Source: Ginglymostoma cirratum
Taxonomy: Eukaryota
NCBI GenBank assembly: GCA_024137785.1
Contig: JAHRHZ010000116.1
Span: 186,001-250,000 of the forward strand
Length of the DNA stretch: 64,000 nucleotides
Direction of reading: 5' to 3'
The notes beneath the pieces are model-generated. The model was not told the DNA's origin. It made no database searches and was given only the letters and a program-made list of their open reading frames with translations. Of the stretch, positions 2,977 to 57,948 are shown in pieces. Both the position numbers and the translations under genes were made by a program. Every line of letters starts with the position of its first letter. The first letter of the stretch is position 1.

Positions 2977-3510
2977 AACTTTTGAGTGACACACCCTCTT
3001 GTTTCTGTCACTGTATTCTCCCAACCCGCAATCATCCACTAATGTTAAAGTTTCCCTCATATTTTCAAGCGTTCTGAGGTTCACAGTTCCATGCACAATG
3101 GACGTTTCTAATGACAACATTCCCATATTTACGGATGTAGGTCAAGAATATCGGAGATTTACCCGGGTCCTGATGTTACAAGTGCAAAATATGTGCATTT
3201 TCTGTGGCCAAATAGCGAAAGCTAACATGAGCAGTCGCCAAATTTCCTTCAAACTGTGTCATTTTAGCCAGCGGCTATGAGATCAAGTCTGCAAGATTAA
3301 AGCCTGCAGAAATGTAGAAATAAAATGGCATGAAAAGGCCGACGACAATTAATGTTAATAAGTTAAAGCATACATTGTAATACAGAGAACACATCCAAAT
3401 AAACTATTGCTATAGTGATATTGCCCAGAAGTTAGCACTTCACAGCTCACAAACTTACCTGTGAGGAGAGTTGCAGTAGTGTGAAGGGAGAAAATAATAA
3501 ATGGGTACAT
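2977..3510 (-). pseudogene. TCR-type V pseudogene, family B (no Cys1, Trp->Leu)
   Basis: Leader 3510-3459 MYPFIIFSLHTTATLLT|GTAAG. V exon 3303-3016 has stops (..VSFRY..LHL*HQDPGKSPIFLTYI..DDCGLG). RSS TACAGTG (3015-3009), 23 spacer, TCAAAAGTT. Confidence 0.85.
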
Positions 3511-5858
3511 GTTTGCAGAGCGGATGATGGATTTGAACGAAAGGCATTGATGCTGAATTATTCAGCTGAGACACCATGATGTTTCTATTCCAGTCTCCCT
3601 GCCGAATCGAGTTCATTTCTGACAGTATCATCAGGTATCATCCAGTCAGCTGGCAGCTCATTAATTCCTCGTTCATGACGTGAAAATGAATGCAGGGCGG
3701 CAGCGAGAGTTAGAGGAGGTTACTTGGCCGTTTGGCATGTGCAACCCGCTCTGTCAGAGAATGAGATTGTGGTCATTCCACCACAATTCCAAATTCCTGC
3801 AGAATTCCCAAATGACTTCTGTCTTTTACGTTCTATTCGTCAATCAGCATCGGTCAAATACACTTAATATCTGAACAACAAATATAGCTTGATTATTGAA
3901 TGAAGCTGTAACGAGGGTTAACTTTAATTTGGGTCTTTAACAGAGTCACTCCGGGCCATTAATTTCATGGTGTTGTGGTATTAGCACGTCACTGATCACT
4001 GTCACAGCATTTTATCAATTTCGACAGTAAACAACGTACATATTAAAATGTGTTGACACTCCTGATGTTATATCAGGGACTGAACCCTGATCAGAGACAT
4101 ACTTGGACAATTGAATCATGTTTTCCCTTCAAGCAATTGGCTGGTTTCTCAGATTTGATGTCAACAGTGGGCCAACCTCAGTTATTCCAGGAATGAGTTC
4201 AGCTGACACTCTCCAATCTCTTCCCTGGATGTTATAGCGTCTTTCTCACAAGTTTGCTCTTTCTTTGCTTTCAGACATTGCGTCTTCTCTCCGTTTAACA
4301 CGACTTTCTTCAGAGATTTTTAGTGCTCACTTCAGATTGGTGGATTTTTCTCTGTAGTTAAGATCAAATGTGAAATTATTCAATATAATTTTATCATTCA
4401 GGTGTCAAACGACGTGTACAGACAAGGTCCACCGTTATGTGCTACTGAGTGAAGATCACCAAGGAAATGACAAGTAGTCATCCACTTCATAACTGAATTG
4501 TTTTCTTAATGGAACTGAACTTGTTTTGAAAAATTGTTCATTTAAATCACAAACCATTTTACCCTTTGGGCTTTAAAATGTTCATCTTACAGTCACCCTA
4601 ACATTCACTTACCCAGCCAGACATTAGATTAGATCAGTTTTGAAAGATTGTGATTGATAAAATGGAAACATTTCCAGGAAATTTAAAAGTAAAGAAGGGC
4701 ATCTTCAAAAGTAGTATGAAGACGCCATTCTGCACTTTGATCTGTCTCCTCTATTTCAGAAAATCATGACTAGTCTTGTTCGGACCTCAACACTTTTTCG
4801 CTGCCCACCCACAGAATTCCTTTTCAATCTACAGATCAAAAATATACCTAACGTCGCCTTGAATATATTCAATAGTCCAGCCTCCAATGGCCTGGTATAT
4901 TTTAATTCCAAAGAAAAACGATCGTTTGAGAGAGAAAGAGGAATTTCCTGACATTCATCTTAAATTTGAGTGTGGTTCTTTTTAACGTTTGTCTTTTCAC
5001 TCAAAATAGCCTGAAAAAAATATTACCTCAGTATCCGCAAAATTAAGGACGCTCGGGATTTTTCATGTTTTGTTCAAAAAAAACCTCCTTTTTATTTTCT
5101 CATTTGTTTGTTAATCCCTCCATTAAGTCCACATTACATCTAACATTAAAGTGATCCCTTGATGTGCATTACTGTGGTGAAGACCAACGGACAGAATGAA
5201 AGAAAACCTCTCGGATCGGGCTGTGTTATCATATTCGTTCTCTTTCTCCTTCTATTGGAATGGAATCCTTTTTTTTTTCTTCCATTGGTACGGGCCTGTG
5301 ATGTTTGAGCTAGGCAACTTTTAATTAAATATTTAGCATTATTTAAACTCAAACAACTGTGCTTCATATAATTCAATAACTTTGAAAATGTATTTAGTTT
5401 TCCATTACCACATGCTTTGTTTTATTTGTATAAGTACCTGTCTGTTTCTGTTTAGAAGCCATGTCTGAGTTTTTCTTTTGAAGCCTGTTCCAGTCAATAC
5501 ACGACGGCGCGCTCTGAACGCATTCAGAAGATTAGCTTGTCTCCTTCGACAGAAAATGATTGTTTGAAGAAAGCAAAATATATGGGGAGATGCAATCACA
5601 GACAGTCACACAATACTACTGGGTTGCTTCAACTTATCCTGTCCCAGATCTAGAACAGACAGTGATCGTTATTACTGGAGTTCAGTCTTTAAAAATGGTT
5701 GTGAATTTCATCCAACTCTGATTATTCTCTTGATAATGATTCCAACTGCAACCCCAAATAAAAGCAACAAGCCATTTGTTTCTTCGCATTTCAATTTTCG
5801 AGTGATCATCATTATCCTCAGCTTTCTAATGCAATGTTTATCTGCTGTTTCTTTCCAG

Positions 5859-6202
5859 AGATGAACATTTGGTGTCTCAGTCAGAACAGGAAGTGAAATC
5901 AGTGAAGGAAAAGGATCAGCAACATCTTACAGCTACTGGGTATCTGATGTAGCTACAAACTATGGCCTGTTCTGGATTCGAGAGTATTCACAGCAAGCTC
6001 CTCAATAGATTCTCCCAAACAATAGTTATGAATGTAATGTTACTGCTTCCGGTTGTGATCGATTTAGCGAGCACCTCTCCTCGCAGCAGACATTTTCCAA
6101 TTTGACGAAATAATACAGGCATTAAGGCAACAGACAGCCTGGTTATCACTGTGTACAGAGATCGACATTGAATGTGATTCCCTATACGCTGATGGGCAAA
6201 CT
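5859..6202 (+). pseudogene. TCR-type V pseudogene, family C
   Basis: Acceptor CTTTCCAG, then VSQSEQEV..SEGKGSATSYSY..NYGLFWIREYSQQAPQ*..RFS..YHCVQR with stops and frameshifts. Degenerate RSS GACATTG-23-GGGCAAACT. Confidence 0.75.
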
Positions 6203-7252: not shown

Positions 7253-7340
7253 AAAGGTGAGTGTAGGTGGGGAGGTAGGGAGATCGAGGGAGTGTCGGAG
7301 GTCTTGGGGTGGTGTCCAGGACATGGAGATGTGTTGGAGG
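7253..7340 (-). repeat. 88-bp perfect inverted copy of 8174-8261 (Penelope-derived)
   Basis: Base-by-base reverse-complement identity with 8174-8261. Confidence 0.92.
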
Positions 7341-7794
7341 CTTTTGTAATAATAATGATCATGCCACCGAGTGAGTCTGAATTCAATTCGCCATCTTATG
7401 TTTCATCTTTGCAATCATATTTTTGACACATTCACTGTGTTTCTTGGAGGAACGAGCGGTCAAGTTTCAGTTTTCCAGGAATCACTTGAACAAACGGTTC
7501 AGGAAAGAGGTAATGTAAGCCTGAACTGCAGTTACAAAACTACAGAGCCTGCTCCTAATTTATTCTGGTACGTCCAAGATCCAGGGGAATCTCCGAGATA
7601 TATACTGAGGAGATTCAATAAGGAACAGGGAGACTAGTCTCAGGATTTCCCTGACAGGTTTTCTGCGAATTTGGACAAAGGGAAGAAGACAGTTCCATTA
7701 AAAATCACAGCGGCTTCTGACTCTGACATTGCTGTCTGTCACTGTGCACTGATCTCAACAGAGATACAGAGTTCAGTTAGCCTATTCAAAAAGC
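7341..7794 (+). pseudogene. TRAV-like V pseudogene, family D
   Basis: Leader remnant ends 7370|GTGAGT. V exon 7450-7756 reads TSGQVSVFQ..VSLNCSYKTT..LFWYVQDPGESPRYIL..GD*SQDFPDRFSA..SDIAVCHCALI. RSS AACAGAG-22-TCAAAAAGC. Confidence 0.92.
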
Positions 7795-7899
7795 AGCACG
7801 CTGATCTCAACAGCTCACCTCCCTCTACCCCGGCCACAACACCCACACACACACACGCACCCCCCCCCACACACAAACACACACAAAGATACACAAAAA

Positions 7900-8513: not shown

Positions 8514-9229
8514 TCAAATAAGCAATCAGATGTGTGTGCTGTATTAGTTAGCTCTTGTTTTTGAAAATAAAGCTACGAATTTCACTTTATCCAGAAGATT
8601 TCTACTACGGTTCAGAATGTTTGCTTTTTGTTTAAAGTCCCTCTTATATCGTTAGCAGAAATTGTTCATGATCAAAGAACAGGGTATTTAATAGCGGCAC
8701 CGATATTGCAACACAATTAGTTCTCACTCATCAATGACCCAGCTCAAGTTTGACTCTGCGAAGTGAACAAAATTGAAGATAATGTTCATTTCAATTTTAT
8801 TCAGTATTATATAACAGATGGTGCACTTGTAACTATATTATTTTCCACCGATGACGATGGATCAACAGATCTTAATGGACAGAATGGAGTTGGTAATTGT
8901 ACAGAAAGTTGTCTGCGAGTATACCATTCTAATATTACTCAGTGAAGGAGAAAGTTCAAAATGTCAAATTGCTCTGGCCCAAAGAAAATTTTTTGATGAT
9001 CTGACCAGGTCTTTGACGACAGAGTCTAGAGAAGAAAAGGAGCTATGAGGAATTATGCTGTCACCTTGTTATTGTGTCTGACATGAAGCAGTTGGTAACG
9101 AGACACATATGATAGAACATCAGTTCTGACTTGAAGCAATTCAGCTTCAGCTCCTTATCTAAAAATCTACCATGAGGTCTGATCATAAACAATTTAACTT
9201 CAAATGGCAATGTGAAAACAATATGCTTA

Positions 9230-9757
9230 GCAAATATTTCAACTATTACTATTTGTTTATTTGTCACTTTTGCCGCTCTTTTAATTAATAAATTCCTCGG
9301 ATGAATAAAGTTAGGCTGTAGCAATTTTACCCATGTCTTCATTTCCCTGTATTGTATTATATGCCCTTATCTTGTTAAAATTGATTATAATTGTCCATGA
9401 AACCCGTTTCATTTCCAAATTTCTGCAGGCGTTCATTATACAGATACAGTGTCACAGTTGACACTGACAGCGATACTAATTGGTGGAGATTTTGTGACCG
9501 TTGATTTCAGCTATTTTACAGCAATATTACAGTTGTACCATCAGGACCCGGGTAAATCCCAGACATTCTTGATCGACAGTCTTAAATATAGGGATTTTGT
9601 AGGAGATAATGACGTTGTCAATCGATATTTGCTCCTCTGGGTACATTGAAAAGGGATGGGAATTTCACTGTTGGTGAATTGCACCCGTGTGACAGTGCGG
9701 TTTATTATTGTGTGCTGCAAGACACGGTGACAGGAACCAGATGGACCCTCAAAGATA
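9230..9757 (+). pseudogene. TCR-type V pseudogene, family B
   Basis: Degenerate leader (ATG->ATT, GT->AT). Exon 9429-9722 reads DTVSQ..VTVDFSY..LQLYHQDPGKSQTFLID..DSAVYYCVLQ with a stop and a frameshift. Heptamer CACGGTG 9723-9729; the spacer is shortened to ~19 nt. Confidence 0.85.
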
Positions 9758-9859
9758 AAGAAACACTATTATGAACAAACCTCAACAGAAAGCAGCAGTA
9801 ACCCAGAAAGCTGCACCTGTTATTGTATGACGTTTTGGCCTGATACAATTCCTTTATTC

Positions 9860-10145
9860 ATTAACGGGATGTCTCAGGCTATCAAGCATTTATTTCTAAT
9901 TGCTCAGAGGGCAGGTGAGAGTAAATTAAATTTCTGTGGGTCTGGAGTTTCCATCCCTAAAGAACATTAGTGAACCAGATGGGTTTTTCCAAGACGATCG
10001 ATTTATGGTCATCATTAAAATTTTAATTCCAGACATTTCAATTTTTAAAAAAAATTCCACAACGTGCTATGGCGGAATTCACAGGTTCCCAGAATGTTAT
10101 CTGGGTCTATGGATTAATGTTCTCGCCGTAATAACATCAACCATT
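9860..10145 (-). mobile_element. tRNA-derived shark SINE inserted at the RSS of the adjacent V
   Basis: Shared motifs (CCAGA.CC..ATAACATTC, AAAAACCCATCTGGTTCACTAATG, AATAAATGCT tail) with copies at 33680-34010, 43450-43610, 52030-52330 and 61840-62070. Confidence 0.65.
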
Positions 10146-10151
10146 CTGGTG

Positions 10152-10884
10152 GGGTTCCCCACACAGTAATTGACTGTGGTGTCATACTCTATCAGTTCCC
10201 AGATGGTCAATCGCTACAACCACTTCGACTGCTGGATTGAATCAGAAAACCAGGCCTGAGCGAAATCCACCTTCAGTTGAGCAGCACACTTGTCCCTCCA
10301 GACTGCATACACTGGCTAACTCCCTCGGTACTGACGGGGCCACAATAAGGAATAAAGATCGCTAGCGTAGGTGCATCTGAAAGTGACATCTTCTCCCTCT
10401 GACTGTATGAGCGAAGGATCCCGCAAAATGACAAAAAATGAATTGCTCTGATCTGGAACAAACTGTTAAAGAAAGTGGAAGTCTACAATGAAATAAGCAT
10501 TTAGATTGATCTACCAATTTAAAATAAAACTCATTCAGTGCGATATGTTACTAAGAAGAAATTAGAGCATACTATAATTAAATCACATAATGAAAATAAC
10601 TGCCTGTATCCATGACGATAACCTAGAGGAGAATTCTCTTTTCCCCTTGTTCCCGTTTGTTTCAGCATGTCTCGCTGACCGTGTTTCCTGCTTCATTTTC
10701 CTTGGCCAGCTCCTCACGACTCAATTGATTTGATACAACCACTCCTTCCGCTATTCCAGTTCTTGATTTAAAGACCTCTGGCTTGTTTCATTTTTAGTAA
10801 AACAGAAGATCAACGTCTGATTTTGAAACTTGTTACCACAATAAAGGTCACCGAGATTACCACGAAAACGGGGAACTACATCAT
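10152..10884 (-). pseudogene. TCR-type V pseudogene, family A
   Basis: Leader 10884-10837 MM*FPVFVVISVTFIV. Exon from 10452 reads SLIQSEGEDVTFRCTY..LLWPRQYRGS*..DFAQAWFSD..DTTVNYCVG with stops. The RSS is destroyed by the SINE. Confidence 0.85.
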
Positions 10885-11469
10885 TGCTGCTGCCCTTCCA
10901 GGAGATTTATTTATGTCTCAGAAATCTGCAGAATATTGAATAAGAGAGAAAAAAATCTCAGAGCATTGGCCGAGACTAGTCTGATGTCAAGTCCGTCAAC
11001 AGAAGCATCTGTCATCTCTGTTTCAGATTGGTCGGGGGCCATTTCCATTCTTAGTTTTCAGCGCTTCCGACATTAACCTGACATTCCACCGAACAGAGTA
11101 AAGGACCAGTAAAGATAAACGCCTCATTTCTCATAAAACTGTCAGCCTGATGTTTAACTGATCTGAGATATTTATTTCAAAATAAATGAAATACAGCTGA
11201 TAAATATGGAAGATGGCCATCAGCGAATTTCCCTCACTGTCACAAATCAAACTGAATTCGCAGGATGGATCATTGGACTCAAAACGTTCATTCTGTTTTG
11301 TCTCCACAGAAGGCGCCAGACTCACAGAGATATTCCAACAATTGTTGTTTTAATACTCAATTTGCTGATGGCTTCAGTTTTGATCAACGTTTTACCAACG
11401 ATACATAATGTGATTTTCGCTTAGATTTCACATTCTGCAAGTGGATCAGCGGGCTTTAGAACGAATGGA

Positions 11470-11846
11470 ACGTTTGGACCTCCAGCGCAAAAAGGAGTCA
11501 ACATCTTGAGGAGTTCCTGTGCTGTAATTTTCTTTGCTCTTTCTTCTTTGTTCTTTGAGTGTAGAGCTACTGGACATGGTCGCTCAAAATATATAGTCAC
11601 AGTCTCCGTGAGAGCTGTGAACAATTGGTCAGCATTGTTCCTGTTAGCAGAACACATGAGAGCATTGAAGGGAGACCCGGAAGGGCCAATTGACGTTATG
11701 GAGCTCTACGGTTGAAACTTGTTTTCAAGTTCAAAATCATTTCTTAACGAAATATGCTCATTTTGCAGTAACTGTGAATGACTCAGCAATAGGCTTCATT
11801 GAATAAACACGATGAACAGACACTATTCCAAAGTTTCAGGAAACTG
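11470..11846 (+). pseudogene. Highly decayed V relic, possibly IgH-V-like
   Basis: Read together with the paralog at 32015-32380 (-): W/VRIVPG-like, FKVRFIS and VNDSAI(D/G)F motifs in order, then CACGATG (11808) + 23 nt + an A-rich nonamer-like site. Confidence 0.3.
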
Positions 11847-13770: not shown

Positions 13771-13787
13771 CTCGCCAGAGGGCGCTG
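13771..13787 (+). promoter_or_regulatory. CTCF-like motif
   Basis: CTCGCCAGAGGGCGCTG matches the CTCF core consensus. The paralog at 62347-62363 has one substitution. Confidence 0.5.
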
Positions 13788-13833
13788 TAATCTCACTACT
13801 TGAACTCTTTATAGCATCCTCTTCTTGTCGACT

Positions 13834-14696: not shown

Positions 14697-15550
14697 ATGT
14701 TTCCAGGACCATTACATTTATTCCTCACAGCTGCGGCTTCTCTACCAGGTAGACTGATAAATTGTGGATCTTTCTGTTTCTGATCATCAGTAGAAATTAC
14801 ACTTAATCGATCAGTTCCGTCAAAACACAAGCAGCAATACAGTCGCCCCAACTGAAAACAATCACCTGGATTTAACACCCAGCATGTTCAGGGGTAGTTA
14901 GCGAACGTCCTCAAGTAGATGATAGCAGAAGTGTTTGGCTGGCAATCTAGCCAGGACTGAGGCCATTAAGATGCAGTGACAGGAACGGGAGCTTTCAACT
15001 CACTGGCTTAAACAGTTTTACTTTCTAGTTACAGAGATGAAATTTGAAATGACTTCAGGAGAAGATATGACATGTTTATAAATGAAGTATTATTTAGTCT
15101 GTCGAAGCTCTTTCCCGTTCCGTCTGCTGAATTGCTAAAAATGGCTTCTTGCTTAGCTTCCCTGATTACTTTTTCAGGTTGCTGTGTCTTAGCTTCCTTC
15201 ATTTGTTTTTTGGGTTGCTGACATTTTCCAGAAACTGACCTTTCTTATCAACTCTCGTGTTATTGTTCAATTTGACGGGCCAAATCTGGGCGATAAAAAA
15301 AAAATTAAATTTCCTACTACTCCTGCTTGTTTTTTACAGTACTTTTTCGTGGAGATTCCATCTGACAGACATCGGCTTCAATCCCAGAGCACGAGAGTGA
15401 TGATGTTCAGCTGTTCTGTAATTGCACTACAACAAGCAACACTCCTTATCTTTTCTGGTACTATGAACGTTTAAACGTCTCCATGGAATTTCTACTATCC
15501 AGAAACCAATGCCGTGAGAACACAGAGAGATGTCCATTGGTTCGTGAAAC
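14697..15550 (+). pseudogene. TRAV/TRDV-like V pseudogene, family E, 3'-truncated
   Basis: Leader 14697-14748 MFPGPLHLFLTAAASLP|GT. Exon from 15340 reads GDSI*QTSASI..VQLFCNCTTTSNTPYLFWYYERLN..EFLL. No FR3 end or RSS found. CCAAT and an ETS site (CCGGAAGT at 14601) lie upstream. Confidence 0.82.
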
Positions 15551-18135: not shown

Positions 18136-18397
18136 CGGAATTCCTCATATTTATTCAATGCTCCTAAATCGCTCTGCGTTTGCATGAGTAAGAGGAGCTG
18201 ATATTTTCGTTTATTGTGGAATGTGTCCCAAGCTTGGCCTCCTCCGTCATCTTTTATTGAATTATTCTGTTCTTTCTTGATTCCCGATCCAGGTACTACA
18301 AAACACAAGTTTCCAGAAGACAATACACAGTGGAAGTTTTCAGAAAATTTGATTCTTCATTTCTTGATTTTCATCACCATCTCACTCTGTGTTAATA

Positions 18398-19178
18398 TGA
18401 GATTTTATTAAGATAGCATCCTATTGATTTCCATATTCTCTATATATAATAGTCTTTATCTGCTTACACAGAGGTATGCAGGCACTGCTTTAAAACTTCC
18501 TGCCCAACTAGATTTAACTGTAAAACTTTGTAAATCCTCATCTTCCATTTCATAAGTAGAAAAAACACTGCCTTAAGCTTCCTGCCTGAATAGAATTAGG
18601 TATAAATTTTGTAAATATTTATTTTCCTGCACAGCGGTATGTGGAAGCTGTCTCAAATAAGATCAGGTGGCAACGTTTGTAAAGGTGTGAGGCTTCTGAA
18701 ATCCTGTAAAGAATGCAGCTTCTGTTTCTGCTAAAGGGGCCAGGACACTGACCTTTGTTCAAGACAGACACTTAGGCAGCTTGAAATCACATCTGTCGCT
18801 GCAGCAACTTGAAATCGCCTCCTGCCGTGAGCAGTCACTTTACGAACGATCGATACTGTATCCTGCTTTCTTTATGTTTTCGATGTAGTAATTGTTTGTG
18901 TTATCATGTCATTGTCCGATGTAGTGATTGTTTCATGTAACATGCCATTGTGAGATGTAAAATTGCTTTATGTATTATGCACTCGATAAGGTATAAAAAG
19001 TGAGAACTATCCGCTGCTCGGGAGAATCGCTTACGAGACTCTGCACTCGGTGCCGGGTTGAGCACAGTGATCCTCCACAGCTTGTACTTGCTTGGTAATA
19101 AAGGATTTATGTTTTCCAAACAGGTCAGTGTCTTGTTATTGCATCAAGTACGTGAGCGTCTCCAAAAATAACCAAGCA
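18398..19178 (+). repeat. ERV 5' LTR
   Basis: TGAGAT..AAGCA. Contains a TATAAAA box, AATAAA and an internal ~85-bp duplicated U3 unit; homologous to 23319-24103. Confidence 0.93.
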
Positions 19179-19180
19179 TT

Positions 19181-19198
19181 TGACGCTGCGAGCAGGGT
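19181..19198 (+). promoter_or_regulatory. Primer-binding site, tRNA-Ser-like
   Basis: TGACGCTGCGAGCAGGGT lies 2 nt after the LTR and is nearly complementary to vertebrate tRNA-Ser 3' ends (..ACCCTGCTCGC(T/A)GCG-CCA). Confidence 0.7.
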
Positions 19199-23290: not shown

Positions 23291-23318
23291 GTTATCATGA
23301 AATGATGAAAGGAGGGAA

Positions 23319-24103
23319 TGAGATGTTATTGGGATAACATCCCATTGATTTCTATATTCTCTATAAATTAATGCTCTTTTTCTGCTTACACAGAGGTATG
23401 CAGAAACTACCTTAAAACTTCATGCCCAACTAGAATTAGGTGTAAAACTTTGGAAATCTTTGTCTTCCTATACGTAAGTAGAAAAGACAATGCCTTAAGT
23501 TTTCTGCCTGGAAAGAATTAGGTGTAAACTTTGTAAATCTTTATTTTCCTGCGTAGGGGTATGTTGAAGCTGTCTCAAATAAGATTAGGTGGCAACGTTT
23601 GTAAAGGTGTGAGACTTCTGAAATCCTGTAAAGAATGTAACTTCTGTTTCTGATAAAGGGGCCAGGACACTGACCTTTGTTCAAGACAGACACTTCGGAA
23701 GCTTGAAATTACATTCTGTCACTTCAACAACTTGAAATCGCCTCCTGCCGTTAGCAGTCACTTTGAGAACAATCGCTACTGTATCCTGCTTTCTTTATGT
23801 TTTCGATGTAGTAATTGTTTGTGTTATCATGTCATTGTCCGATGTAGTGCTTGCTTCATGTAACATGCCATTGTGAGATGTAAAATTGCTTTATGTACTA
23901 TGCACTCGATAAGGTATGAAAAGTGGGGACTGTCCGCTGCTCGGGGAGAATCGCTTACGAGACTCTGCACTCTGCCAGGTTGAGTACAGTGATCCTCCAC
24001 AGCTTGTACTTACTTTGTAATAAAGGATTTATGTTTTTTCTAAACAGGTCAGTGTCTTGTTATTGCATCAAGTCCGTGTGTGTCTCCAAAAACGAACCTA
24101 ACA
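23319..24103 (+). repeat. ERV 3' LTR
   Basis: Preceded by polypurine tract GAAAGGAGGGAA; TGAGAT..CCTAACA. Confidence 0.93.
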
Positions 24104-24524
24104 AGTAGAGACACATCCTTACAAGATAGTGTCAATGCACAAATCTGAGAAGTGTACTTACGTGTCCTAGATCAAAACATTCCTATCAAAGATGAATACA
24201 TTTACTTAATTTCAAGAATCATCACTCCCACGATCCCACTGTCTGAGTGCTGATTTGTGACTTTTGCTGTTATCTCTTTCCCATTCACTTACTGGAAAAG
24301 AACAGATGGTGAAACAGAACATATTGTGCGTTAGTTTTTATGAACTGGACACGTGAAATTTGAAAACCTAAGGAAAGCATATTCAGTGACAATGACACTG
24401 CTTACAAAGAGAATCAGATAAAAATTTAAGGAAGTGGGATAGAGGTCACAGAATCATCATTTTCATATTAGCAGTAAGGGAATCTTCCTGAGAGATGAGG
24501 AATGTGAGTCTGTGGAAATTGAAC

Positions 24525-25590: not shown

Positions 25591-26598
25591 TTTGCCTGCG
25601 TTTTCATCGTCCAGCACACCAAACTCGGAGTTAATTTGGCAATGACAGCGGGGTGCAAGATCGGGACAGAAGCAGAAAGAGATGCAACATGAAATTGTTT
25701 AGAATTTGTCGTATATCACTTGTTTTCAGTGAGGAATATCTGCCGGATGTTGTTTTGTAAGCATACTAAGAAGCTGCAGAATATGGGTCGCTGGTTTTGT
25801 GGAATCTAAAGTTGCACAATAGCCGCTTGTAGGATTATATCAGCCCACTACTGATTTCATGTCCCAGCTCATAACAACGATTTTCATTGTCTGGAGAAGG
25901 CACTTGTCAAAGACATTTGTGTCTGTGGACGGGGAGCTGATGTGACGCAAATGGAACGTATCTAATCCTGCCGACTCTGCCACTTGGGCGATGAGTCTGT
26001 GTGTTTCCCTCTGAGGTTGAAAATGAGGATCAATTACTCCTGGTGGTGGGCACACAGTTTTTCCCATGTGAATCTTCAGTCCTAATTGCTGTGTAGATTT
26101 GATTAAAAAATGTTGCAGAAAGCATATCATTGAGATAAGAACTTGAAAAGTCGGAGAACATAAGGCTACAAGCTATGTTCTTGAAAATGGGTTAGAATAG
26201 ATGGAAATTTGATGACCAGCACTGATATAATAGGCTGAAGAGTCTTTTTCTCCAAGCAATAAAGTCTTGGTGACAGAAAGAAATCAATCGGTCGTGCAAA
26301 TGAAAGTCAAAACAGAGTCATGAACAAAAGCTACAAGAAGGTTTAGTACCTTGCCTTTGGGTTTGCTCGTTAGGATTGGGTGCTCTCAGTGGCACGACCA
26401 AGGTTCGGCTTTTGGTGGGGGAATAAGATCCAAAGTATTCTGCCGATTTATCGTAACTACAGTATTTTAAACGAAGATTCAGACACACGAACTAAGCTGT
26501 GGAACCACCGGAAGAGTTCTGAGTGGATCAAACTTTTTTCAGGTTACAAGGAAAAGAACATTTGCAGATGCTGGAAATCTGAAAGGATATCAGAGAAT

Positions 26599-27384
26599 TG
26601 TTAGGTTCATTTTTGGAGACCCTCACAGACTTGATGCAATAACAAGACACTGACCTGTTTAGAAAAACATAAATACTTTATTACAAAGCAAGTACAAGCT
26701 GTGGAGGATCATTGTACTCAACCCGGCACAGAGTGCAGAGTTGCGTCAGTGATTCTCCCCGAGCAGCGGACACTCCCCGCATTTTATACCTTATCGAGTG
26801 CATAATACATAAAGCAATTTTACATCTCACAATGGCATGTTACATGAAACAATCACTACATCGGACAATGACATGATAACACAAACAGTTACTACAACGA
26901 AAACATATAGTAAACAGGTTACAGTATCGATCGTTCTCAAAGTGACTGCGAATGGCAGGAGGCGATTTCAAGGTGCTGCATTTACAGAATGTATTTTCAA
27001 GCTTCCGAAGTATCTGGCTTGAACAAAGGCCAGTGTCCTGGCACCTTTAGCAGAAACAGAAGTTACATTCTTTACAGGATTTCAGAAGTCTCACACCTTA
27101 ACAAACGTTGCCACCTAATCTTATTTGAGACAGCTTCCACATATCACCGTGCAGGAAAATAAAGATTTACAAAGTTTATACCTAATTCTATTCAGGCAGG
27201 AACCTTAAGGGATTGTCTTTTCTACTTATGTACAGGAACATAAGGATTTACTAAGTTTTACACCTAATTCTAGTTGGGCAGTAAATTTTAAGGTAGTGCC
27301 TGCATACCTCTGTGTAAGCAGATAAAGAGCATTAATTTATAGAGAATATAGAAATCAATGCGATGTTATCCCAATAACATCTCA
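26599..27384 (-). mobile_element. Solo LTR of the same ERV family
   Basis: Reverse complement of the proviral LTRs with a perfect 4-bp TSD GAAT (26595-26598, 27385-27388). It interrupts a short Penelope-associated repeat. Confidence 0.95.
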
Positions 27385-27603
27385 GAATAAGCAGGTGTGG
27401 CATCATCTTTTGACAGAGTGCAGTGTTTACCGTTTTGGTTCCAGTGACCCTGCTTTAGAAATAGGCCAGTTATGACTCACTATATTAAAATATTGGAGAA
27501 AAAAATTATATTTATCGGTTGAATCAGCATATTTATCAAATTCTCTGTCATTGGATTACAACAGTCAACTTCAAAGTTTCAAAACGATTTAATTATCTCT
27601 TCC

Positions 27604-31443: not shown

Positions 31444-32926
31444 CATTGACGCTGGAGGATCAATTGCATAAATCGGCTGAAGTGTGGCAGCTGGAGCGAT
31501 ATTTGAATAAATAAGAAATATTGCATTTTCATAAAACAAGCAAGGGCAGGATTTCTCCAACAAAATTATGGCCTTGGGTAGTGTTGTCGAATAAAGATAC
31601 CTACGGTGTCAGGTACATATTTATTTGAACCCTGCATGAACGATAGATTGCATGCTTATCTTTGCTATGAAGCCTGCACTGACTGCACTGACACTATTTG
31701 GATCATTTCCAAAAACCCACTCTGAGATTTCCAGCAGTGCACAACAGCGGGCGCACTCACCATCAAAAAGCAGAACCAATAATTTTGCAAGTACAGTGAC
31801 AATCAGAGGGACCTTCCGAAAAGAATCATACCAAGCCCCAAAATTCAACAAGGCGATGATCCTGACTGCTTAAATAATGTTACTTTATTTCAAAACGTAT
31901 TTCCCCTTCAATCAGCATTTGTAAAATTTACTCAATCACTTTTCTAATATTGCCTTTTGAAGGAGTTTCCCTGCCTATGTGCACTGTTAATCACCATTTC
32001 TACATCAACACTGTCAGCTTCCTAAAACTTTGGAATGGTGTTTGTTCATCGGGTTTATTCAATGAAGTCTATTGCTGAGTCATTCACAGTCCATGTGAAA
32101 TGAACATATTTCGTAAAGAAATGAATCTGACTTTGAAAACAGCTTCGCAAACATAGAGCCCCGGAATGTCAGTTGGCGCTTCATGATCTACCTTCAATGT
32201 TCTCATGTGTTCTGCTCCCAGGAACAATCCTGACCAATCATTCACAGCTCTCACGGACAGAATGCCTACATATGCAATACCGCTGCACTCCTCAGGATAT
32301 TGATTCCCTTTTGCGCTAGAGGTACAAACATTCCATCCATTCTGCAGTCCGCTGTTCCATTTGTAGAACGTTACACTCAAACATTGAGACGAAAATCACT
32401 TTGTGTATTCCTGGTAAAACGTTAATCAAAGCAGAAGCCATCAGCAAACGAAGTTTTAAAACTGCAATGGTTGGAAAATCTGAGCGAGTCTGGCACCATC
32501 TGTGGAGACAAAACAGAATGAACGTTTTGAGTCCAATGACCCTTCCTCCGGATTCAGTTTGATTCGTGACAGTGAGCGAAATAAGCTGAGGGTCTTCTTC
32601 CGTATTTATCAACTGTATTTCTTTTATTTTGAAATAAATATCTCAGATCAGTTAAACATCAGACTGACAGGTTTTTGAGAAACGAGGCTGTCTATCTTTA
32701 CTGATCATTTACTCTGTTCAGCGGAATTCCAGGTTAATGTTAGAAACAGTGAAAGCTAAGAGTGGAAATGTCTCCCAAGCAATCTGAAACAGAGATCACA
32801 GATACTTGTTGTGACGAACGTGACATCAGACTCATCTCGGTCAATGCTCTGAGGATTTTTTTCTCTCTTATTCAATATTCCGCATATTTCTGAGACATAA
32901 AGTAATCTCCTGGAAGCGCAGCAGCA

Positions 32927-33661
32927 ATGATGTAGTTCCCCGTTTTCGCGGTAATCTCGGTAACCTTTATTGTGAAATGAAGTTTCATATTTAGACAGCT
33001 TTTAATTTCTGCATTTCTCAAACTGAAACAAGCCAGTGTTCTTTCAATCAAGAACTGGACTGGTGGTAGGAGTGGTTGTGTCAAATCAATTGAGTCCTGA
33101 AGTGCCCATCAGGAAATAAGATGTAGGAAAGACGGACAGAGAGAAAATCAAAAATAAATGAGAACAAGGGGAAAAGAGAATTCTCCTCCAGATTGCTATC
33201 ATAGATACAGACCGTTTCCGTATGTGAATTAATTATGGTATGTTCTAGTTTCTTAATATCATGTTGCACTGAATGCAATTTTTACTTTTTTATCAGTAGT
33301 TCAATGTACATAAATATTTAATTGCAGACTTCCACTCTCTGTCACATTTTGTTCCAAATCAGAGCAATTCATTTTCTGTCATTTGGCGGGATTTTTCGCT
33401 TACACAGCCATAGGGAGAAGATGTCACTTTCAGTTTCACTTTTGCGGAGGATCTTCAATCATTATTATGGTAGCATCGGCACCCAGGGTGATTGCCAGTG
33501 CTTGCAGTCTGGAGGGACAAGAGCGGTACTGCACAATTGAAGGCGGATTTCGGTCAGGCCCGGTTTTCTGATGCAGTCCAGCATTCAAAGTGGTTGTACC
33601 GATTGAACATCCTGGAGCTACCACTGTATGACACCACAGTCTATTACCGTGCAGTGATCCT
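32927..33661 (+). pseudogene. TCR-type V pseudogene, family A
   Basis: Leader MM*FPVFAVISVTFIV. Acceptor mutated (CCAA). Exon reads ..GEDVTF..LLW*HRHPG*..ADFGQARFSDAVQ..DTTVYYRAV. A SINE follows in the RSS. Confidence 0.85.
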
Positions 33662-33679
33662 CCGTGTAATACAGGGAGA

Positions 33680-34010
33680 CGATGTTCTAATGTTATTACA
33701 GCGAGACATTGAATCCAGAGACCCACATAACATTCAGGGCGAGCCTGCGAAACACACCACGGCAGATTGTGTGGAATTTGAATTCATTAAAATATCTGCA
33801 ATCAAAAATCTAACGAAGACCATGAGTCGATTGTCATGGAAAAAACACATCTGGTTTACTAATGTCCTTTAGGAATGGAAACTGCCATCCTTACCTGGTC
33901 TGGTCTCTATGTGACTCTAAACCCACAGCAATATGATTGCCTCTCACCTGCCCTCTGGACAATTAGAAATAAATGCTGCGCAGCCAGCGACGCCCTCACC
34001 CATTAATGAA
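33680..34010 (+). mobile_element. tRNA-derived shark SINE
   Basis: CATCTGGTTTACTAATGTCCTTTAGG..CTTACCTGGTCTGG..AATAAATGCTG..GCCAGCGACGCCC. Paralog of 9860-10145. Confidence 0.7.
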
Positions 34011-34109
34011 TAAAGGAATGGTATCAAGCCAAAACGTCGTAGACTAACTGTTGCAGCTTTCGGGGTCACATCTGCTTTCTCTTGAGGGTTGTTCATAACA
34101 GTGTTTCTT

Positions 34110-34660
34110 TCTCTTTGAGAATCCATCTGGTTCCTGTCACTGTGTCTCACAACACACAGGAATAGACTGCACTGTCAAACTGGTGAAACTCACCGATAGT
34201 GAAATTCCCATCGCTTTTCTCTCTGCCCAGTGGAGCAAATATCGATTGACAACGTCATTATTTCCTTCACCATCCCCATACTTAAGGATGTCGATAAAGA
34301 ATGTCAGGGACTTCCCCGGGTCCTGACGGTGCAACAGTAAACTATAAATCAATTGCTGTAAAATAGCTCAAATCAATGTTCAATAAATCTCCACCAATCT
34401 TTATCTCAGTAAGCATCAACCGCGACAATGAATCTACATAATTAACGCCGGCAGAAATTTGGAAATGAAACAGCTTTTAAGGACAATTATAATCAATGTA
34501 ATATAATGGGCATGTAATGCAATACAGGGAAATGTAGACATAGGAAAGATTGCTATAGTCTTATTACCTACAAGCTATCACTTTTCTTCATCTGAGGAAC
34601 TTATTAATTATGAGAGCGGCAGAAGTGGGAAATGAGTAAACAGTAACAGCTGAAATGTTT
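34110..34660 (-). pseudogene. TCR-type V pseudogene, family B
   Basis: Exon 34448-34145 reads ..IDLSY..LLLHRQDPGKSLTFFIDI..DSAVYSCVL. Heptamer CACAGTG 34144-34138 with a shortened spacer. Leader and acceptor mutated. Confidence 0.85.
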
Positions 34661-35454
34661 GCAAAATAAGTGGAGAGTTTTCACAATGCCATTTGAAGCT
34701 AAATTGTCCATGCTTAGAACTCAAGGTAGATTTGTAGATAAGGAGCTAAGCTGAACAGCTTCGAGTCAGAATTGATTTTCTATCATAGAGGTCTCGTTGT
34801 CAACCGTTTCATTTCAGACACAATAACAAGGTGACAGCCAAAGTCCATGTAGCTCATTTTCTTCTCTAAGCTCTGACGTCAGAGATCTGGTAACATGATC
34901 CCAAAATATTAGACGGATTGGGGCCATTGGGCTCTTTGAACTTTCTCCTCGACTCAGTAAGATTACATTGATATGCTCACAACCAACTTTCTGCACAATT
35001 CTCAATTGCAAAATGTCTATTAAAATCCTCTGATCCATCGACAACAATGGGAAATAAAATCTTTGCAAGTGCAACATCTATTCTATGATTACTGAATCAA
35101 ATTGAAATGAACATTATCTTCAATTCTGTTCACTTCGCAGAGTCAATCTTGAGCTGGGTCATTGATGAGTAAGAAGTAATTTGTTCTCATATCAGCGCCG
35201 CTAATACATCCACCATTCCCTGCTCATGAACAATTTGAACAACCGATATAAGAGGGCGTTTAAACAGAAAAGCAAATATTCTGAACCGTAGTAGAGATCT
35301 TTTGGATCATGTGAAATTCATAGTTTTGATTTCGACAACTAGAATTAATATTCCAGCACACAAACCTAAATGCTTATTTGTATGTATGTTTGCGTGTGTG
35401 CGTGTGTGTGTGTGGTAAGGGTAGAGGGAGGTGAGCTGTTGAGATCTTCTTGCT

Positions 35455-35930
35455 GTGTTTTGTACAGGCTGACTGAACTCTGTATCACTGTGAAGCTCAG
35501 TGCACAGCGATAGACGGCAGTATTAGAGACAGGAGCTGCTGCGAGTTTTAATGGAACTGTCTTCTTTCCTTTGTCCAAAATCGCAGAACACCTGTCGGGG
35601 AATTCTTGAGACTTGTCTCCCTATTGACTGTTGAATCTCCTCAGTATATATTTCGGGGGTTCCCCTGGATGGTTTACGTACCAGAAGAGAATAGGAGCAG
35701 GATCCGTTGTTTCGTAACTGCAGTTCAGGCAACATTGCCTCCTTCCTGAAACGTTTGTTCAAGTGATTCCTGGAAACTGAATCTTGGCCGCTCGTTCCTG
35801 CAACAAACACAATGCATGTGTCAAAATATGATTGCAAAGAAGAAACACACGCTGGCAAATTGATTTCAGACTCACTCGGTGTCATGGCCATTATTATTAC
35901 AAAAGCCAACACAGAAGCATGACATCACAT
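35455..35930 (-). pseudogene. TRAV-like V pseudogene, family D
   Basis: Leader 35930-35876 M*CHASVLAFVIIMAMTP|GTGAGT. Exon 35797-35493 has two frameshifts and a TAG (LNCSY..LFWYV..AVYRCALS). RSS CACAGTG-22-ACAAAACAC. Confidence 0.92.
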
Positions 35931-42780: not shown

Positions 42781-43067
42781 TGGTCTCTGTTTAAATAAGT
42801 TCACCAATTAATAAAATATTGACAAGGTCATTTTTTAAAAAAAAAATAATTGTTTTCTGTCTATTTACAATGCTTTCTATTACCTTGATGGCGTGATTTG
42901 ATCGAAGTGATAACGTATGACTTCATTTCCCTTCAGTTTCTTTTTTAAGGATTAATTGTGCAGACCCCCGTATTCCAGGAGCCTGCGAATTAAACCGGTT
43001 TGAAGGCGACTCTGTGACCATTAACTTTAGTCATCAGCTCAAAATTGCTGATTTGTATTCCTTTCAG

Positions 43068-43208
43068 ATGTGCGGTCAAGACACAATAAGTGTCCCACTG
43101 ATCCCACAATACGAAGATCTTTTCAGGACATTGTACATACGTTCTGCGTTTTCCCCTTCTCAGGAGAGACACAGTGATAGTAAGCAGAGCGAAACCCAGA
43201 CAGAAACA
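43068..43208 (+). pseudogene. Internally deleted mini-V (102-nt exon) with near-consensus 23-RSS
   Basis: Acceptor TTCCTTTCAG; CGQDTIS..(FR1) fused to SAF..ER. RSS CACAGTG 43170-43176, 23 spacer, ACAGAAACA 43200-43208. Confidence 0.65.
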
Positions 43209-46274: not shown

Positions 46275-46313
<39 letters not shown>

Positions 46314-46335: not shown

Positions 46336-46364
46336 AGAAACACGGACAGGAACATGCACATATC

Positions 46365-49345: not shown

Positions 49346-49356
49346 AATTTTGAGAT

Positions 49357-50790: not shown

Positions 50791-50859
50791 GGAAAAATAA
50801 GGTTTAATTTCGTTACAGAAATCGAAATTTACAAGATTGACAATATCTCACCGTTTCAC

Positions 50860-51421
50860 TACAGTTCACTGCATGGCACGGAGGTTCATGGCACTGTAAG
50901 AGTTAAGGATACTGTTTCGTGATCTTGTCAGTTTTATTAAGCCGAGAGGGAAATTGACCACTAATGCAGTTGTCCCTCTGCGCTCTTCTTCTAGTAATTC
51001 AATAAACGAACTGTGGATGCTGCCTGGGCACTAACTGTATCAAGATTCATAAGGTTTAGATTCACTTGTCTTCAAATTGCAGTTTAGGACGGTACTGTTT
51101 GCCTCTTCAGACGTCATTTCAGAAAATGGCTGCCCCACTGTAAACTACCAGCTACATTATGACACCCGAAATATGCTAAGAAATGAAACTCGGTGTCAGC
51201 CACATATTGGTCAAATTAATCGTCATATTGACTGTTATTCAACTAACACTAATATCTGTGTTGTAGCAATAAAATATTTTCCTAGAAGATATATACTTAT
51301 TGAGAATGGAGAGAATGTTGAACAACGGTATGAGATATTTACCCATGTGAATTCTTACCTCTGTAACTCTGCAGTGCAAGAAATTCCTTGTCAGAGCAGA
51401 AAATACAAATCCCTGCCCCAT
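50860..51421 (-). pseudogene. TRAV/TRDV-like V pseudogene
   Basis: Donor GAG|GTAAGA at 51358. Exon ~51151-50867 reads TVGQPFSEMTSEEANSTVLNCNLKTSESKPYES*YS*CPG..SYSAMNLRAM. Degenerate heptamer AACTGTA. Confidence 0.72.
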
Positions 51422-53310: not shown

Positions 53311-53473
53311 CTCATAACTGGTAACTTATTTTAAAAAGTACACACATCTACATGCAGACTTCACTGATACCATTTTGATGTGTTTCCTGTATATTCTGAA
53401 AAAGTTAAATTACCGATTGATACCGTAATGTAATGATAAGTAACTATAGTACTGTAATGGTAAATTACTGTAG

Positions 53474-53811
53474 GTGTAAGTAAGTGGAAACTCAATCACC
53501 CAGGACCTACTATCAGCGATAAGTATTGAAATTAATATGGTGACCTTTGGTAACAATTATTCTACTACTGCTTCTGATGCAAATTATTTTCAACTAATTC
53601 TTAAGCTTCGAGATAAAGAGCCGATGTTCTTGATTTACATTCCTAGCTTCCTAACTGGCCATGTTAGCAATGCTGAGGGTAAGGGTCCACGATTTTCTGC
53701 TAACATAGACTGTTTCACGAACAGTGAGTGGCTGAAGTCTGACAAAGTGCTTTATTATTGTAGACTGACAGACACCACGACAGGACCCAGAGGGAACCCA
53801 GAACAAAAGTA
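53474..53811 (+). pseudogene. TCR-type V pseudogene, divergent family-B relative (no Cys1, Trp->Leu)
   Basis: GNSITQD..VTFGNNYSTT..FQLILK..FLIYIPS..GPRFSANID..SDKVLYYCRLT. A 4-nt duplication at the exon start shifts the frame, and FR3 has a deletion. RSS CACCACG-23-ACAAAAGTA. Confidence 0.85.
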
Positions 53812-54519
53812 TTTTACCTTGAGGCGAGGTGAACTGTGAAAGGAGTTTGGAGGGAGAAACATTGATAAACAGCATTTAACAAACAGGCTTCGAACAATGA
53901 CTCTGTATGACTGTTCCAATTTGCCCTGAATAGATGAGTGAGCTTTCCTATGGAAATTAAACCAAACCGTTAGGAATTGGCAGTTGAAACATGTCACAGT
54001 TATAAAACCCCCCTATTCATGCACTCTTGTCGATTTTCTGTGTTCATTTGTCCCTCTCTGTTTTGATACTGCTAACACAGAGTGACATGTGACAATCTTT
54101 CCCTTATGATTCCAGCATAGATGGTGATCAGCATTCAACACTCTCCAAACTCAGTCTGACTGGCGGCATTGAGTGAAAAAGGAACATCTAACTTCAACAA
54201 CTCTATTTATTTCACTGAAACCACTTTTTCCGTCCATTAAGTGGCCAAGTGGTCTATGAACTCAGTTCCGGATCAAGAAATCTGTACTTACTAATTTTTT
54301 TTCGACTCATTACAATGCGCCATTTATGCTTCTCTTAGCTGACATAAGCGCAGACTTGTGGTTATCAAAGTCATCAGATCATCAGATCTAGGTCATCCTA
54401 TTGCACGATACAAAGGAAGTGCCATCAAATTTAACCCAGCTAAATGTTGTCAGTTTATAATCCTACGGTGTTCTGCAGTTTTCAGAGGCACTGAAACATC
54501 TCTAGCATCTAAAGCAGCA

Positions 54520-55588
54520 ATGATGTGGCTCTCCATCCTCTCTCTGGTGTGTGTGACATTCATTGCAGGTAAGGAATTAAATTTTAAAAAGGATATCAAT
54601 CCACGAAGTATAAATTTGTGAATCAGGGTGATTGTGTTACATAAGTACCTGAGCTGGATTAAAGCCCTCGTGGGTGTACACTTCTGGTCTCTTTCTTACC
54701 TGAAGAATGAACGGTCACGAAATACAACGGCAAGTCATTTAGTGTAGATAATGTTAGAGTTTCGTGATTGCAAACGACAGAAAACAAAAAAAAGTTAGAT
54801 TAGGTACCTTTCCCTACTAACCACAAGACTATTGGTTAACCAGACTGATGTCTTTACAGATGTCAAGAGGTCTTAGTTTCTGCAAATGGAGAGTGCATTG
54901 CATATGAGAAGATTTCATATCAATAAACTTGATTTAGGTAAAAAGAAGGAACAAAATGTTCCAAATAAGATTTCAAGAGAAATTTGTTTAGCTGGAGAGT
55001 GTCTAGAATTTGGTTATCGTTACTACAAGGAAAATTTGAGAGAACAGCAACGATGTTCTTTTAAGGAAAGTAGATAAAAGTATGAGTTGGAAATGGGTGG
55101 AGAGATTTTCTCATAAAATGATAAGGATAAATAGTTTTTATACACGTGGACACAAGACTGACAGACCGAATAAATTTTTGCGACTCTCAATTCTGTCTGG
55201 TTATTATTAATGCTGTCAATTTCCATCTTCAGTTCAGTTCATTCAAACGTTTAATCACTGATCTCTGCTTTCTCTAACGTTGTATTCCAGGCACGAACGA
55301 TGGAGATTCTCTCACTCAGCAGGTGCCCTCACTCACACAGACGAAGGGCGACGATGTCACTCTAAACTGTACTTACACTGGTCGTCCTGTTTCCGTGTTC
55401 CGGTACCATCAGTATCCAGGAGGGCATCCCGACCTCGCAATCTGGAGGTACACGAGTAGTGCTGCTGAAATGAAGTCGGATTTCGCACAGACCTGGTTTT
55501 CTGATGCCCTGCAGCAGACAGACAAGTTCTATAAGTTAACTATCTCGGAGCCTACTGACACCTCGGTATATTGCTGTGCAATGAGACT
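54520..55588 (+). CDS. TCR alpha/delta-type V segment, family A, open frame but non-canonical (exons 54520-54568 and 55291-55588)
   Basis: MMWLSILSLVCVTFIA|GTNDGDSLTQ..VTLNCTY..VFRYHQYPG..ISEPTDTSVYCCAMR. No stops and intact GT/AG. Trp->Arg and a 2-codon FR3 deletion. Confidence 0.85.
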
Positions 55589-55627
55589 CACTGTGGTGGA
55601 AGCAAGTGAAAGCTTCGTACAATAAGT
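55589..55627 (+). other. 23-spacer recombination signal sequence
   Basis: CACTGTG + 23 nt + ACAATAAGT. Confidence 0.85.
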
Positions 55628-55734
55628 ACGATTGGTTTATTGGTCACAGATGCTGCATCTTAAGCGCTGTTGTTAACAGTGGGTCACACACTGGAACTTT
55701 GTTACATTCCTGTGAGGGAACGATCGTGAAGCAC

Positions 55735-56600
55735 AGTTCAGATTGATTGATTGATTGATCGTAACACGTACCGAATCATAGTAAAAAAGGTTTGCTTACG
55801 AGCCATTTATGCAGACCATAGTAAGCAAGGATGCACATACCAAGAAGACATGGACGGAGGCATACAGCTCACATTGCACAGGACATGGGATAGACTGAAT
55901 CAGCAGTATTTGAGGCTGTAAAGCCAATTTTACATTCTAATAATTCCGTCAAGAAACGGTTCATGAACCTACTGATGGGTGCGTTAATGCTTCTGTATCT
56001 TATGCTGAATGGAAAAGGTTATATAAGATTATCACAGTGGGGGTACGATGGGTTTTCGATTATTTGTGCCTCCTCATTACAGCAGAGAGCAGTGTAAATG
56101 GAGTCCATGGGAGGAAGTTTGGCTTCAGAAATGGTTTTGGCTGTGCACACTACCTTCTGTAGCTTCTGGCGGTCCTGGACAGAAGAGTTGCCAAAGCAGG
56201 CCGTCATGCACTCGGACAGCATGAGCAGCTGCAGAAGTTGGTGTGGGTACTTGTAGGCATGCCAAGTTTCCTAAGCTTCTGGAGGAAGAAGAAGCATTTT
56301 GTGCCTTCTTGATCATCACATTTATATAGACGTCCAGGGCAAGTTGTCAGTTATCGTCAATCCGAGCGACTTGACTCACTCCATCCTCTCAAACTCAGTT
56401 CAATTGATGTAGACTGGGGCACATTCTCCACTTTTATTTCTGTAGTCAATGATCAGTTGTTTTGCTTTTCTGATTTTTAAAGAGTGAGAGTGTTCTCATT
56501 GTGCGACGTCACCAAGCCTTTTGTGTCCCTTCTGTGTTTCGACATCTCGTAGTTTGATATCCATTCTACTACGGCCGTGTCGTCAGTGAACTTGTAGATA
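55735..56600 (-). mobile_element. Rex1/Babar-type LINE 3' fragment
   Basis: LSECMTACFGNSSVQDRQKLQKVVCTAKTI. Paralog of 1250-2130. Confidence 0.78.
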
Positions 56601-57420
56601 AAATAACACTTACAATTACTCTCAGGAAGTACGATTTCTCATTGTTGCATTGACCATGTGCGGAACGATTTGGCTGGTGTTTATTTGAGATTCTCTGGGA
56701 AGTCTTCCACCCATTTTCATTGAGAATACCACCTCTGCAACTGGCTAGGCATTTAAAAAAATTGTGTAACACGGATTTGAGTTAAAAAAAACATAATTTT
56801 CAGTGTGAAATTCTAGAGTGCAGTTACCACCAGGTAAGGAAATCCTGGGTAATTACTGTGACCTGATTGAACATGTCTCACTGGGTAATGATATGCATAT
56901 AATGACTAAGAATTCTGAATAAAAGGATAAAAATAAATATTTTCATGACGGCATCGGATTTCCTTGGTCAGAGAATATAAAAACATACTTTGGAAAAACA
57001 ATATTTATATAGTATTATATAGTGAATATTAGAAGGGCATTTAGAAAATCGAAATGAATGTATATTGTTGCTTGCGAATATTTTTTTTTCCTGACCACGC
57101 CGTGGTGCTGTCCTGTTGCAGTTAAATATTCATGAAAAATTGGAAGACACAGTCAGGTCACACATTTAGGTAGACTTCTATCGCCACTGCCAAATTTCTA
57201 ATTTGTAAAATGGTTTTGATTCCCTAATCACATATTTGAATGATGTCCAGAATGTATCCATTACAAAATCGAGCAGAGGAAACCTGCTCCAACTGTTCTT
57301 AATGTTTTGATCTAATTAAAATGAGAACTTTTCAAGAGAATGTATTGATTGCCTGGATTTCACCGCAGTCTGCATGAAGCCCTCCCCCGACTTTTCGCCC
57401 ACACTATCCAACGACAGCAG

Positions 57421-57948
57421 TACTTTTGAGTGACACACCCTTTGGTTCCTGTCACATTGTCCTCTCAACCCGCAATGATCCACCACCGCTGAAGTTTCTG
57501 TCATATTTCTATTCATTCTGAGATGCAGAAAATTGAGCACGGAGGCCATTTGTTCTGACAGCATTTCCATATTAACGGATGTACATCAAGAATATCGGAG
57601 ACTTACCCAGGTCCTCATGTTACAATTGCAAAGTATATAGATTGTCTGTGTTCGATTAATTGAAATGAACATTCACCAAATTTCAATCAAACTGTATCAC
57701 TTTAGCCAGATGCTATGAGATTTAGTCTGCACAATGAACACTTGCAGAAGTATAGAAAGAAATTGACATGAAAAGGCCAATGACCATTATTATTAACAAG
57801 TTGAACCATACATTGCATTTGAGAGAACACATCCAAAGAGTCGATTGCTAGAGCAACAATGCTTAGAAGCTAGCATTTCAAAATTCACGAAATTACCTGT
57901 GAAGAGAGTTGCAGCAGTATGAAGTGAGTAAATAGTAAATAGGTGCAT
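57421..57948 (-). pseudogene. TCR-type V pseudogene, family B
   Basis: Leader 57948-57897 MHLFTIYSLHTAATLFT|GT. Acceptor mutated; stops present; ..VVDHCGLR. RSS CAATGTG-23-TCAAAAGTA. Confidence 0.83.

Follow-up and report, generated by a model that had tools for sequence, protein, structure and literature searches.

Pseudogenes without Cys23 and Trp41 in the nurse shark belong to the T-cell receptor alpha V10 clade, whose intact members probably encode working V domains

Results

Five V pseudogenes without Cys23 and Trp41

The stretch of DNA analyzed here (the window) comprises 64,000 nucleotides (nt) of the 4.36-Gb genome of the nurse shark Ginglymostoma cirratum (contig C116, positions 186001-250000). 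It contains variable (V) segments of T-cell receptor (TCR) type, among them five exons in which a first-pass annotation, made from the sequence alone, had reported the loss of both the first cysteine (Cys23) and the conserved tryptophan (Trp41) of the V domain, with the second cysteine (Cys104) retained. Re-reading the sequence, we found all five exons where they had been placed, and alignment of their codons to those of an intact relative, in the same register, confirmed that Cys23 and Trp41 are absent from every copy and that the Cys104 codon is kept in 5/5.

The exon at 3016-3303 (minus strand) has TTT, TTG and TGC at codons 23, 41 and 104, corresponding to Phe23, Leu41 and Cys104. Its leader exon lies at about 3459-3510 and its heptamer, TACAGTG, at 3009-3015, and it carries three in-register stops and a 26-nt deletion in framework region 3 (FR3). 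The copy at 57460-57741 (minus strand; TTC/TTG/TGC; Phe23, Leu41, Cys104; leader ATG at about 57948) is its duplicate: the stop at codon 42 is common to both, the FR3 deletion matches that of the 3016 copy, and the 57460 copy has lost the acceptor AG and contains seven in-register stops. In the exon at 9429-9722 (plus strand; TTC/TTG/TGT; Phe23, Leu41, Cys104; heptamer CACGGTG at 9723-9729) the leader ATG and the donor site are gone, and complementarity-determining region 1 carries a deletion and FR3 a 1-nt frameshift. Its inverted duplicate at 34145-34448 (minus strand; TTG/TTG/TGT; Leu23, Leu41, Cys104; heptamer CACAGTG at 34138-34144) lacks the acceptor AG and has two frameshifts and a stop after Cys104. 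The fifth exon, at 53474-53772 (plus strand; AAC/CTA/TGT; Asn23, Leu41, Cys104), has a 1-nt insertion at its start and an 18-nt FR3 deletion. The layout of leader, intron, V exon and recombination signal sequence (RSS) is present but broken in every copy, and a search of the window for perfect-consensus RSS gave no match. All five copies are pseudogenes. The list of five was correct as far as it went, but it overlooked a sixth, partial member, a remnant of the 5'-half of such an exon with Phe23 and Met41 at about 42948-43126 on the plus strand (nhmmer, 51.9 bits; also found by tblastn), which stands outside our tree.

Four of the five copies lie in duplicated blocks, as seen when the window was compared with itself. 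The block at 1-4793, containing the 3016 copy and one canonical-type V pseudogene, recurs at 54488-59225 (75.7% identity over 4.9 kb), and the block at 8515-11514, which holds a canonical-type V pseudogene besides the 9429 copy, recurs in inverted orientation at 32287-35380 (78.6% over 3.1 kb). Since lesions are common to both copies within each pair, the five window copies reflect no more than three independent deaths. The first-pass annotation had spoken of a loss shared across divergent members; the common ancestry stands, as shown below, but the five copies are not separate lines of evidence, four of them forming two duplicated pairs.

A single clade with an ancestral double loss

Relatives were collected with a DNA profile built from five of them, which gave 24 matches of at least 112 bits, the next match scoring 65 bits. 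Open-frame V segments were counted in C116:1-650000, in the last 179 kb of contig C115 and in the loci around search matches, so that contig C282 and most of C115 were covered via matches. In a tree built from members picked by the profile, with the two trait codons kept in the alignment (6/291 columns), the 24 members formed one side of a branch with 100/100 support, opposite 25 canonical open V segments. Pfam assigned no family to three window fragments of this clade.

All five window copies fall within the clade, which upholds the proposal that the loss is ancestral; five independent decays are ruled out by the single clade and the shared codons. Cys is absent from position 23 in 23 of the 24 members (Phe in 12, Tyr in 5, Leu in 3, other residues in 3), and Trp is absent from position 41 in all 24 (Leu in 20, Ile in 2, Phe and Gln in one each). 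Cys104 is found in 16/24 and Phe89 in 20/24, both in all open members. Among 28 open-frame V segments with RSS in the DNA examined, three belong to this clade, and the other 25 all retain both Cys23 and Trp41 (checked by eye), so the double loss in the window copies is not due to chance. Phe or Tyr at position 23 and Leu at position 41 are each one base away from the canonical codons, which would fit one ancestral change. In terms of the IMGT criteria for functional V genes, the clade has the hydrophobic residue 89 and 2nd-CYS 104 and lacks 1st-CYS 23 and CONSERVED-TRP 41. About 21 of the 24 members are broken; the lineage is thus left with two to three live genes, and five or six of its roughly 21 pseudogenes lie in the window.

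The sole member with a Cys codon at position 23, at C116:410168-410540, is a pseudogene with five stops nested in the Tyr23 branch, where a neutral TAC-to-TGC change probably occurred.

Open members are spliced and joined to J segments

Three open members were found, all on C282, a contig other than that of the window. C116, C282 and C115 are three separate contigs that carry V genes of TCR alpha/delta type, and the end of C115 holds an array of about 75 joining (J) segments (77 matches, two of them duplicates). Two of the open members, L004 (C282:761.3k) and L054 (C282:520.7k), have a leader exon, a GT-AG intron, an open V exon and a 23-bp RSS. The third, L053 (C282:390966-391283, minus strand), has an open frame, but in this assembly its acceptor reads CG and it carries Ser103; it is decaying, as is its sister at C282:162k.

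The first-pass annotation had suggested that the lineage is possibly expressed and had asked for intact, rearranged relatives. For L004, the splice between leader and V (158 nt, GT-AG) was found in run X1, together with a V end that continues into J-like sequence. The J sequence occurs once in the genome, within the C115 array, and the V-J joint proved to be in frame when translated by hand; run X3 gave a second loose end. For L054, the splice was present in 3/4 runs and V-J joints in 2/4, both joints being in frame by hand translation. Expression thus holds for these relatives, the window copies themselves being dead. A search for longer homologues yielded no full-length chain. None of the listed runs was recorded as RNA containing L004, and two raw-read RNA runs from 2026 gave zero reads over L004 and two reads outside its exon, respectively, which is too few to judge.

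These genes are already public as a family. Ott et al. (2018; PMC5931798) list 43 aV10.1 and two aV10.2 rows among the 447 in the source data of their Table 1, under the nurse shark TCR alpha (TRA) V10 family. Compared by eye, L054 equals the unmutated aV10.1 rows letter for letter, and L053 matches aV10.2. All 45 V10 rows have Tyr or Phe at position 23 and Leu or Phe at position 41, none having Cys23 or Trp41 (by eye). The analyzed clones are described there as in frame and stop-free, and an alpha C primer served to amplify aV10. As Cys23 was regained in 0/45, its rescue in these clones through hypermutation or editing can be rejected. Together with L004, L054 and two bamboo shark proteins described below, the published cDNAs are all without both residues; the alternative, that every intact or expressed relative would carry Cys23 and Trp41, is not what we found.

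By the V family rule of the published study (70% nt and 75% amino acid identity; PMC5931798), L053 and L054 belong to V10, and L004 and the window copies belong to the same clade, outside the strict rule. L004 is 73-75% identical to aV10.1 and aV10.2 in nt and about 57-61% in amino acids, and aV10.1 and aV10.2 share 68% nt identity. In nt identity the window copies range over 54-69% against L054 or L053 and reach at most 71% against L004; the highest values are those of the 53474 copy, which lies in the aV10.1 branch (69% to L054), and of the 9429 copy (71% to L004). The window copies and the V10 cDNAs are of one clade, but the former are pseudogenes and the latter are transcribed. L004 represents a further expressed branch, and its motif gave no match in the supplement of PMC5931798.

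Two observations concern the sequences of this family. The synonymous T/C variant that runs X3 and X4 show at L054:1507 matches the two aV10.1 alleles among the published cDNAs. For L053, two cDNA rows are published despite its CG acceptor, Ser103 and two additional cysteines, which lie in FR2 and FR3; the acceptor may reflect an allele difference from these cDNAs or non-canonical splicing.

Open members are under purifying selection

The ratio of nonsynonymous to synonymous substitution (dN/dS), which had been proposed as a check, was determined by the Nei-Gojobori method with bootstrap intervals. The open members are 68-75% identical, with dS of 0.56-0.80, and their three pairs gave dN/dS values of 0.48 (0.27-0.82), 0.38 (0.20-0.63) and 0.41 (0.22-0.72), all intervals lying below 1. 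The values for 16 canonical control pairs were 0.32-0.77. Constraint on the open V10 members resembles that on ordinary V genes. The dead pair 3016/57460 gave 0.98 (0.50-1.98), the 53474 copy against L054 gave 0.91, and the pair 9429/34145 gave 0.57 (0.31-1.15).

A putatively repacked core

Gly87 and Phe89 are present in 5/5 open members from two species and in 0/25 canonical V segments of the genome; Phe89 occurs in 3/184 canonical database domains. Cys104 is retained in 5/5 open members, and the L054 V segment is without any other Cys. We conclude that Gly87 and Phe89 are likely to represent a compensating repack. The summed volume of five core positions is 688-738 in V10, within or below the canonical value of 751 ± 38, and in fish domains that lack Cys23 and keep Trp41 it is 842 ± 41.

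The fold was also modelled, as had been proposed. AlphaFold returned a V-set fold with a predicted local distance difference test (pLDDT) score of 95.6 from an alignment in which 61/66 rows came from outside the clade, and this model had a TM-score of up to 0.90 to V domains. Sequence and fold searches of PDB and the Atlas gave V-set domains only. In canonical V folds Cys104 sits in the core, so that the unpaired Cys104 of V10 would most likely be buried as well and not form a reactive free thiol.

Relatives in other species

Two open-frame clade members were found in the bamboo shark Chiloscyllium punctatum, GCC45228.1 (Phe23, Leu41) and GCC20152.1 (Phe23, Val41). Protein searches gave no member outside nurse and bamboo shark, but because protein annotation seldom covers V segments, this is weak evidence and does not indicate absence.

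The same searches returned 28 domains without Cys23 but with Trp41 and Cys104; the six identified are from teleosts. The retrieved Cys23-less fish domains keep Trp41 and mostly Leu89, whereas shark V10 has no Trp41 and has Phe89 and Gly87. In the best tree the fish group stood apart from V10, within the canonical V domains of fish (99/98), and an approximately unbiased (AU) test of the fish group and V10 as one origin gave p 0.052 (47 rows, 98 columns), which does not reject a single origin. The AU set left out three long-branch genome rows and included 10 canonical database domains and 10/21 of the fish domains lacking Cys23. TRAV domains that lack Cys23 and keep Trp41 were seen in diverse teleosts (P0033, P0063, P0070, P0082 and P0143, from pikeperch, bonefish, Centroberyx, clownfish and whitefish), and the bonefish domain P0063 lay apart from the main group in a quick tree, which suggests repeated loss of Cys23. 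Salmonid TRAV1 has Tyr23, keeps Cys104, is classed as functional and is productively rearranged to 72/118 TRAJ (PMC8559430); this teleost type is thus, like V10, a TCR alpha V domain without Cys23 and with Cys104.

The searches also returned four two-V shark proteins (P0163, P0171, P0175 and P0186), which we take to be NAR-TCR-like. Their N-terminal V domains have both cysteines and no C-strand Trp, in a region where the alignment is poor.

Discussion

We consider it highly probable that the window contains dead duplicates from TRA V10, a carpet-shark TCR alpha/delta V clade whose intact members, without Cys23 and Trp41, are spliced and V-J rearranged and likely encode working V domains with a putatively repacked core. 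In the ancestor, Phe or Tyr would have replaced Cys23, Leu would have replaced Trp41 and Phe would have replaced Leu89, while position 87 became Gly. The room vacated by the disulfide and the indole may be taken up by Phe89 and the aromatic residue at 23, with Gly87 accommodating them and Cys104 staying buried and unpaired, so that a repacked hydrophobic core would replace the B-F disulfide in holding the domain. The lineage would have expanded by birth and death after this core change.

A single dead ancestor that lost both residues and was then duplicated, leaving a clade composed of pseudogenes throughout, would account for the state of the window, where every copy is dead and pairs share lesions, and for the broken majority of the clade, and for the pairs 3016/57460 and 9429/34145 this explanation holds locally. 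It is refuted for L004 and L054, however, and as an account of the clade it is extremely improbable: frames and signals are intact in members as divergent as the dS values above indicate, with dN/dS near 0.4, the frames are open in bamboo shark as well, and spliced transcripts with in-frame V-J joints exist. Somewhat better placed, though still unlikely, is a transcribed V10 whose protein is marginal, being used transiently in the thymus or forming a weak alpha chain often replaced by secondary rearrangement, in a lineage on its way out. The high fraction of pseudogenes, the decay of L053 and its C282:162k sister, and the fact that V10 is known from genes and transcripts alone are consistent with this, but purifying selection equals that on canonical V genes, the lineage has been retained in two shark genera, and V10 clone names bear both T and V tissue tags, taken as thymus and periphery, with mutated clonal groups among those analyzed in the published data (PMC5931798).

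It is very unlikely that the unpaired Cys104 has been retained because it serves some role of its own, for example as a redox-sensitive site or as partner in a disulfide with a cysteine arising in CDR3 or through somatic hypermutation. Its retention without a partner in all five open members and the hypermutation of shark TCR alpha (PMC5931798) could be taken in its favor, but none of the published clones regained Cys23, L054 offers no other Cys in its V segment, and Cys104 has a core position in canonical folds and is also retained in 28/30 Cys23-less fish TRAV domains.

Several points weigh against a working V10 domain with a repacked core. V10 is known from genes and transcripts, and its folding, its pairing with beta or gamma chains and its surface expression are predicted. 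The high rate of death in the clade could reflect marginal stability. Volume alone proves little, since the fish domains tolerate 842, and core-volume compensation is therefore weak evidence. The AlphaFold model was driven by canonical rows and is thus no test of V10 stability; a 4-row alignment of the clade only gave a pLDDT of 43 and no usable model. L053, with its CG acceptor and Ser103, is an imperfect third member, and the known range covers only two orectolobiform sharks. The splices and joints of L004 and L054 were read from contigs for which the RNA status is a guess or not on record, although splicing and V-J junctions indicate lymphocyte transcripts. Part of the published V10 clones came from a V10-specific leader primer (PMC5931798), the peptide of which is found in the L054 leader, so the number of V10 clones there is not a usage frequency.

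The V10 sequences and the loss of Cys23 in teleosts were known; what appears to be new is the double loss together with Phe89 and Gly87. We found no statement of the double loss of Cys23 and Trp41 in the literature searched, in which nurse shark TCR papers were covered incompletely and may mention it. The main text of PMC5931798 does not mention tryptophan or disulfide, and its two mentions of cysteine are B2M primers. The family would be discarded by annotation rules, since Cys23, Trp41 and Cys104 are criteria for functional V genes. V-set domains without the B-F disulfide are known, for example the heavy chain of antibody ABPC48, CD2 domain 1 and the CEACAM N domains; each is either an individual somatic variant or a receptor that does not rearrange, and each keeps the C-strand Trp or is not an antigen receptor. 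V10, in contrast, is a germline, rearranging lineage without both disulfide and Trp. We tentatively propose, as a possibility falling somewhat short of even, that TRA V10 represents a naturally occurring antigen-receptor V domain, encoded in the germline and under selection, that dispenses with the disulfide and the Trp pin through an undescribed four-site core swap (Phe/Tyr23, Leu41, Gly87, Phe89), a template for disulfide-free V domains that possibly marks a specialized shark T-cell subset. V10 makes folding without disulfide or core Trp directly testable, which bears on the evolution of the Ig fold, and is relevant to the design of V domains that fold in reducing conditions.

Other features of the window and its contig

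At C116:58.8k, outside the window, lies a V segment that translates to the aV1.1 type of the published families (PMC5931798). Within the window, tblastn found eight canonical-type TCR V segments, at 841-1089, 7467-7751, 10154-10435, 15357-15545, 33378-33656, 35495-35728, 50992-51138 and 55311-55580. All have stops, truncations or missing core residues, and their orientations are mixed; the window is a V pseudogene graveyard. It also contains three copies of a repeat of about 790 bp (18392-19181, 23318-24104 and 26596-27390; 89-91% identity, one copy inverted), which is probably a transposable element.

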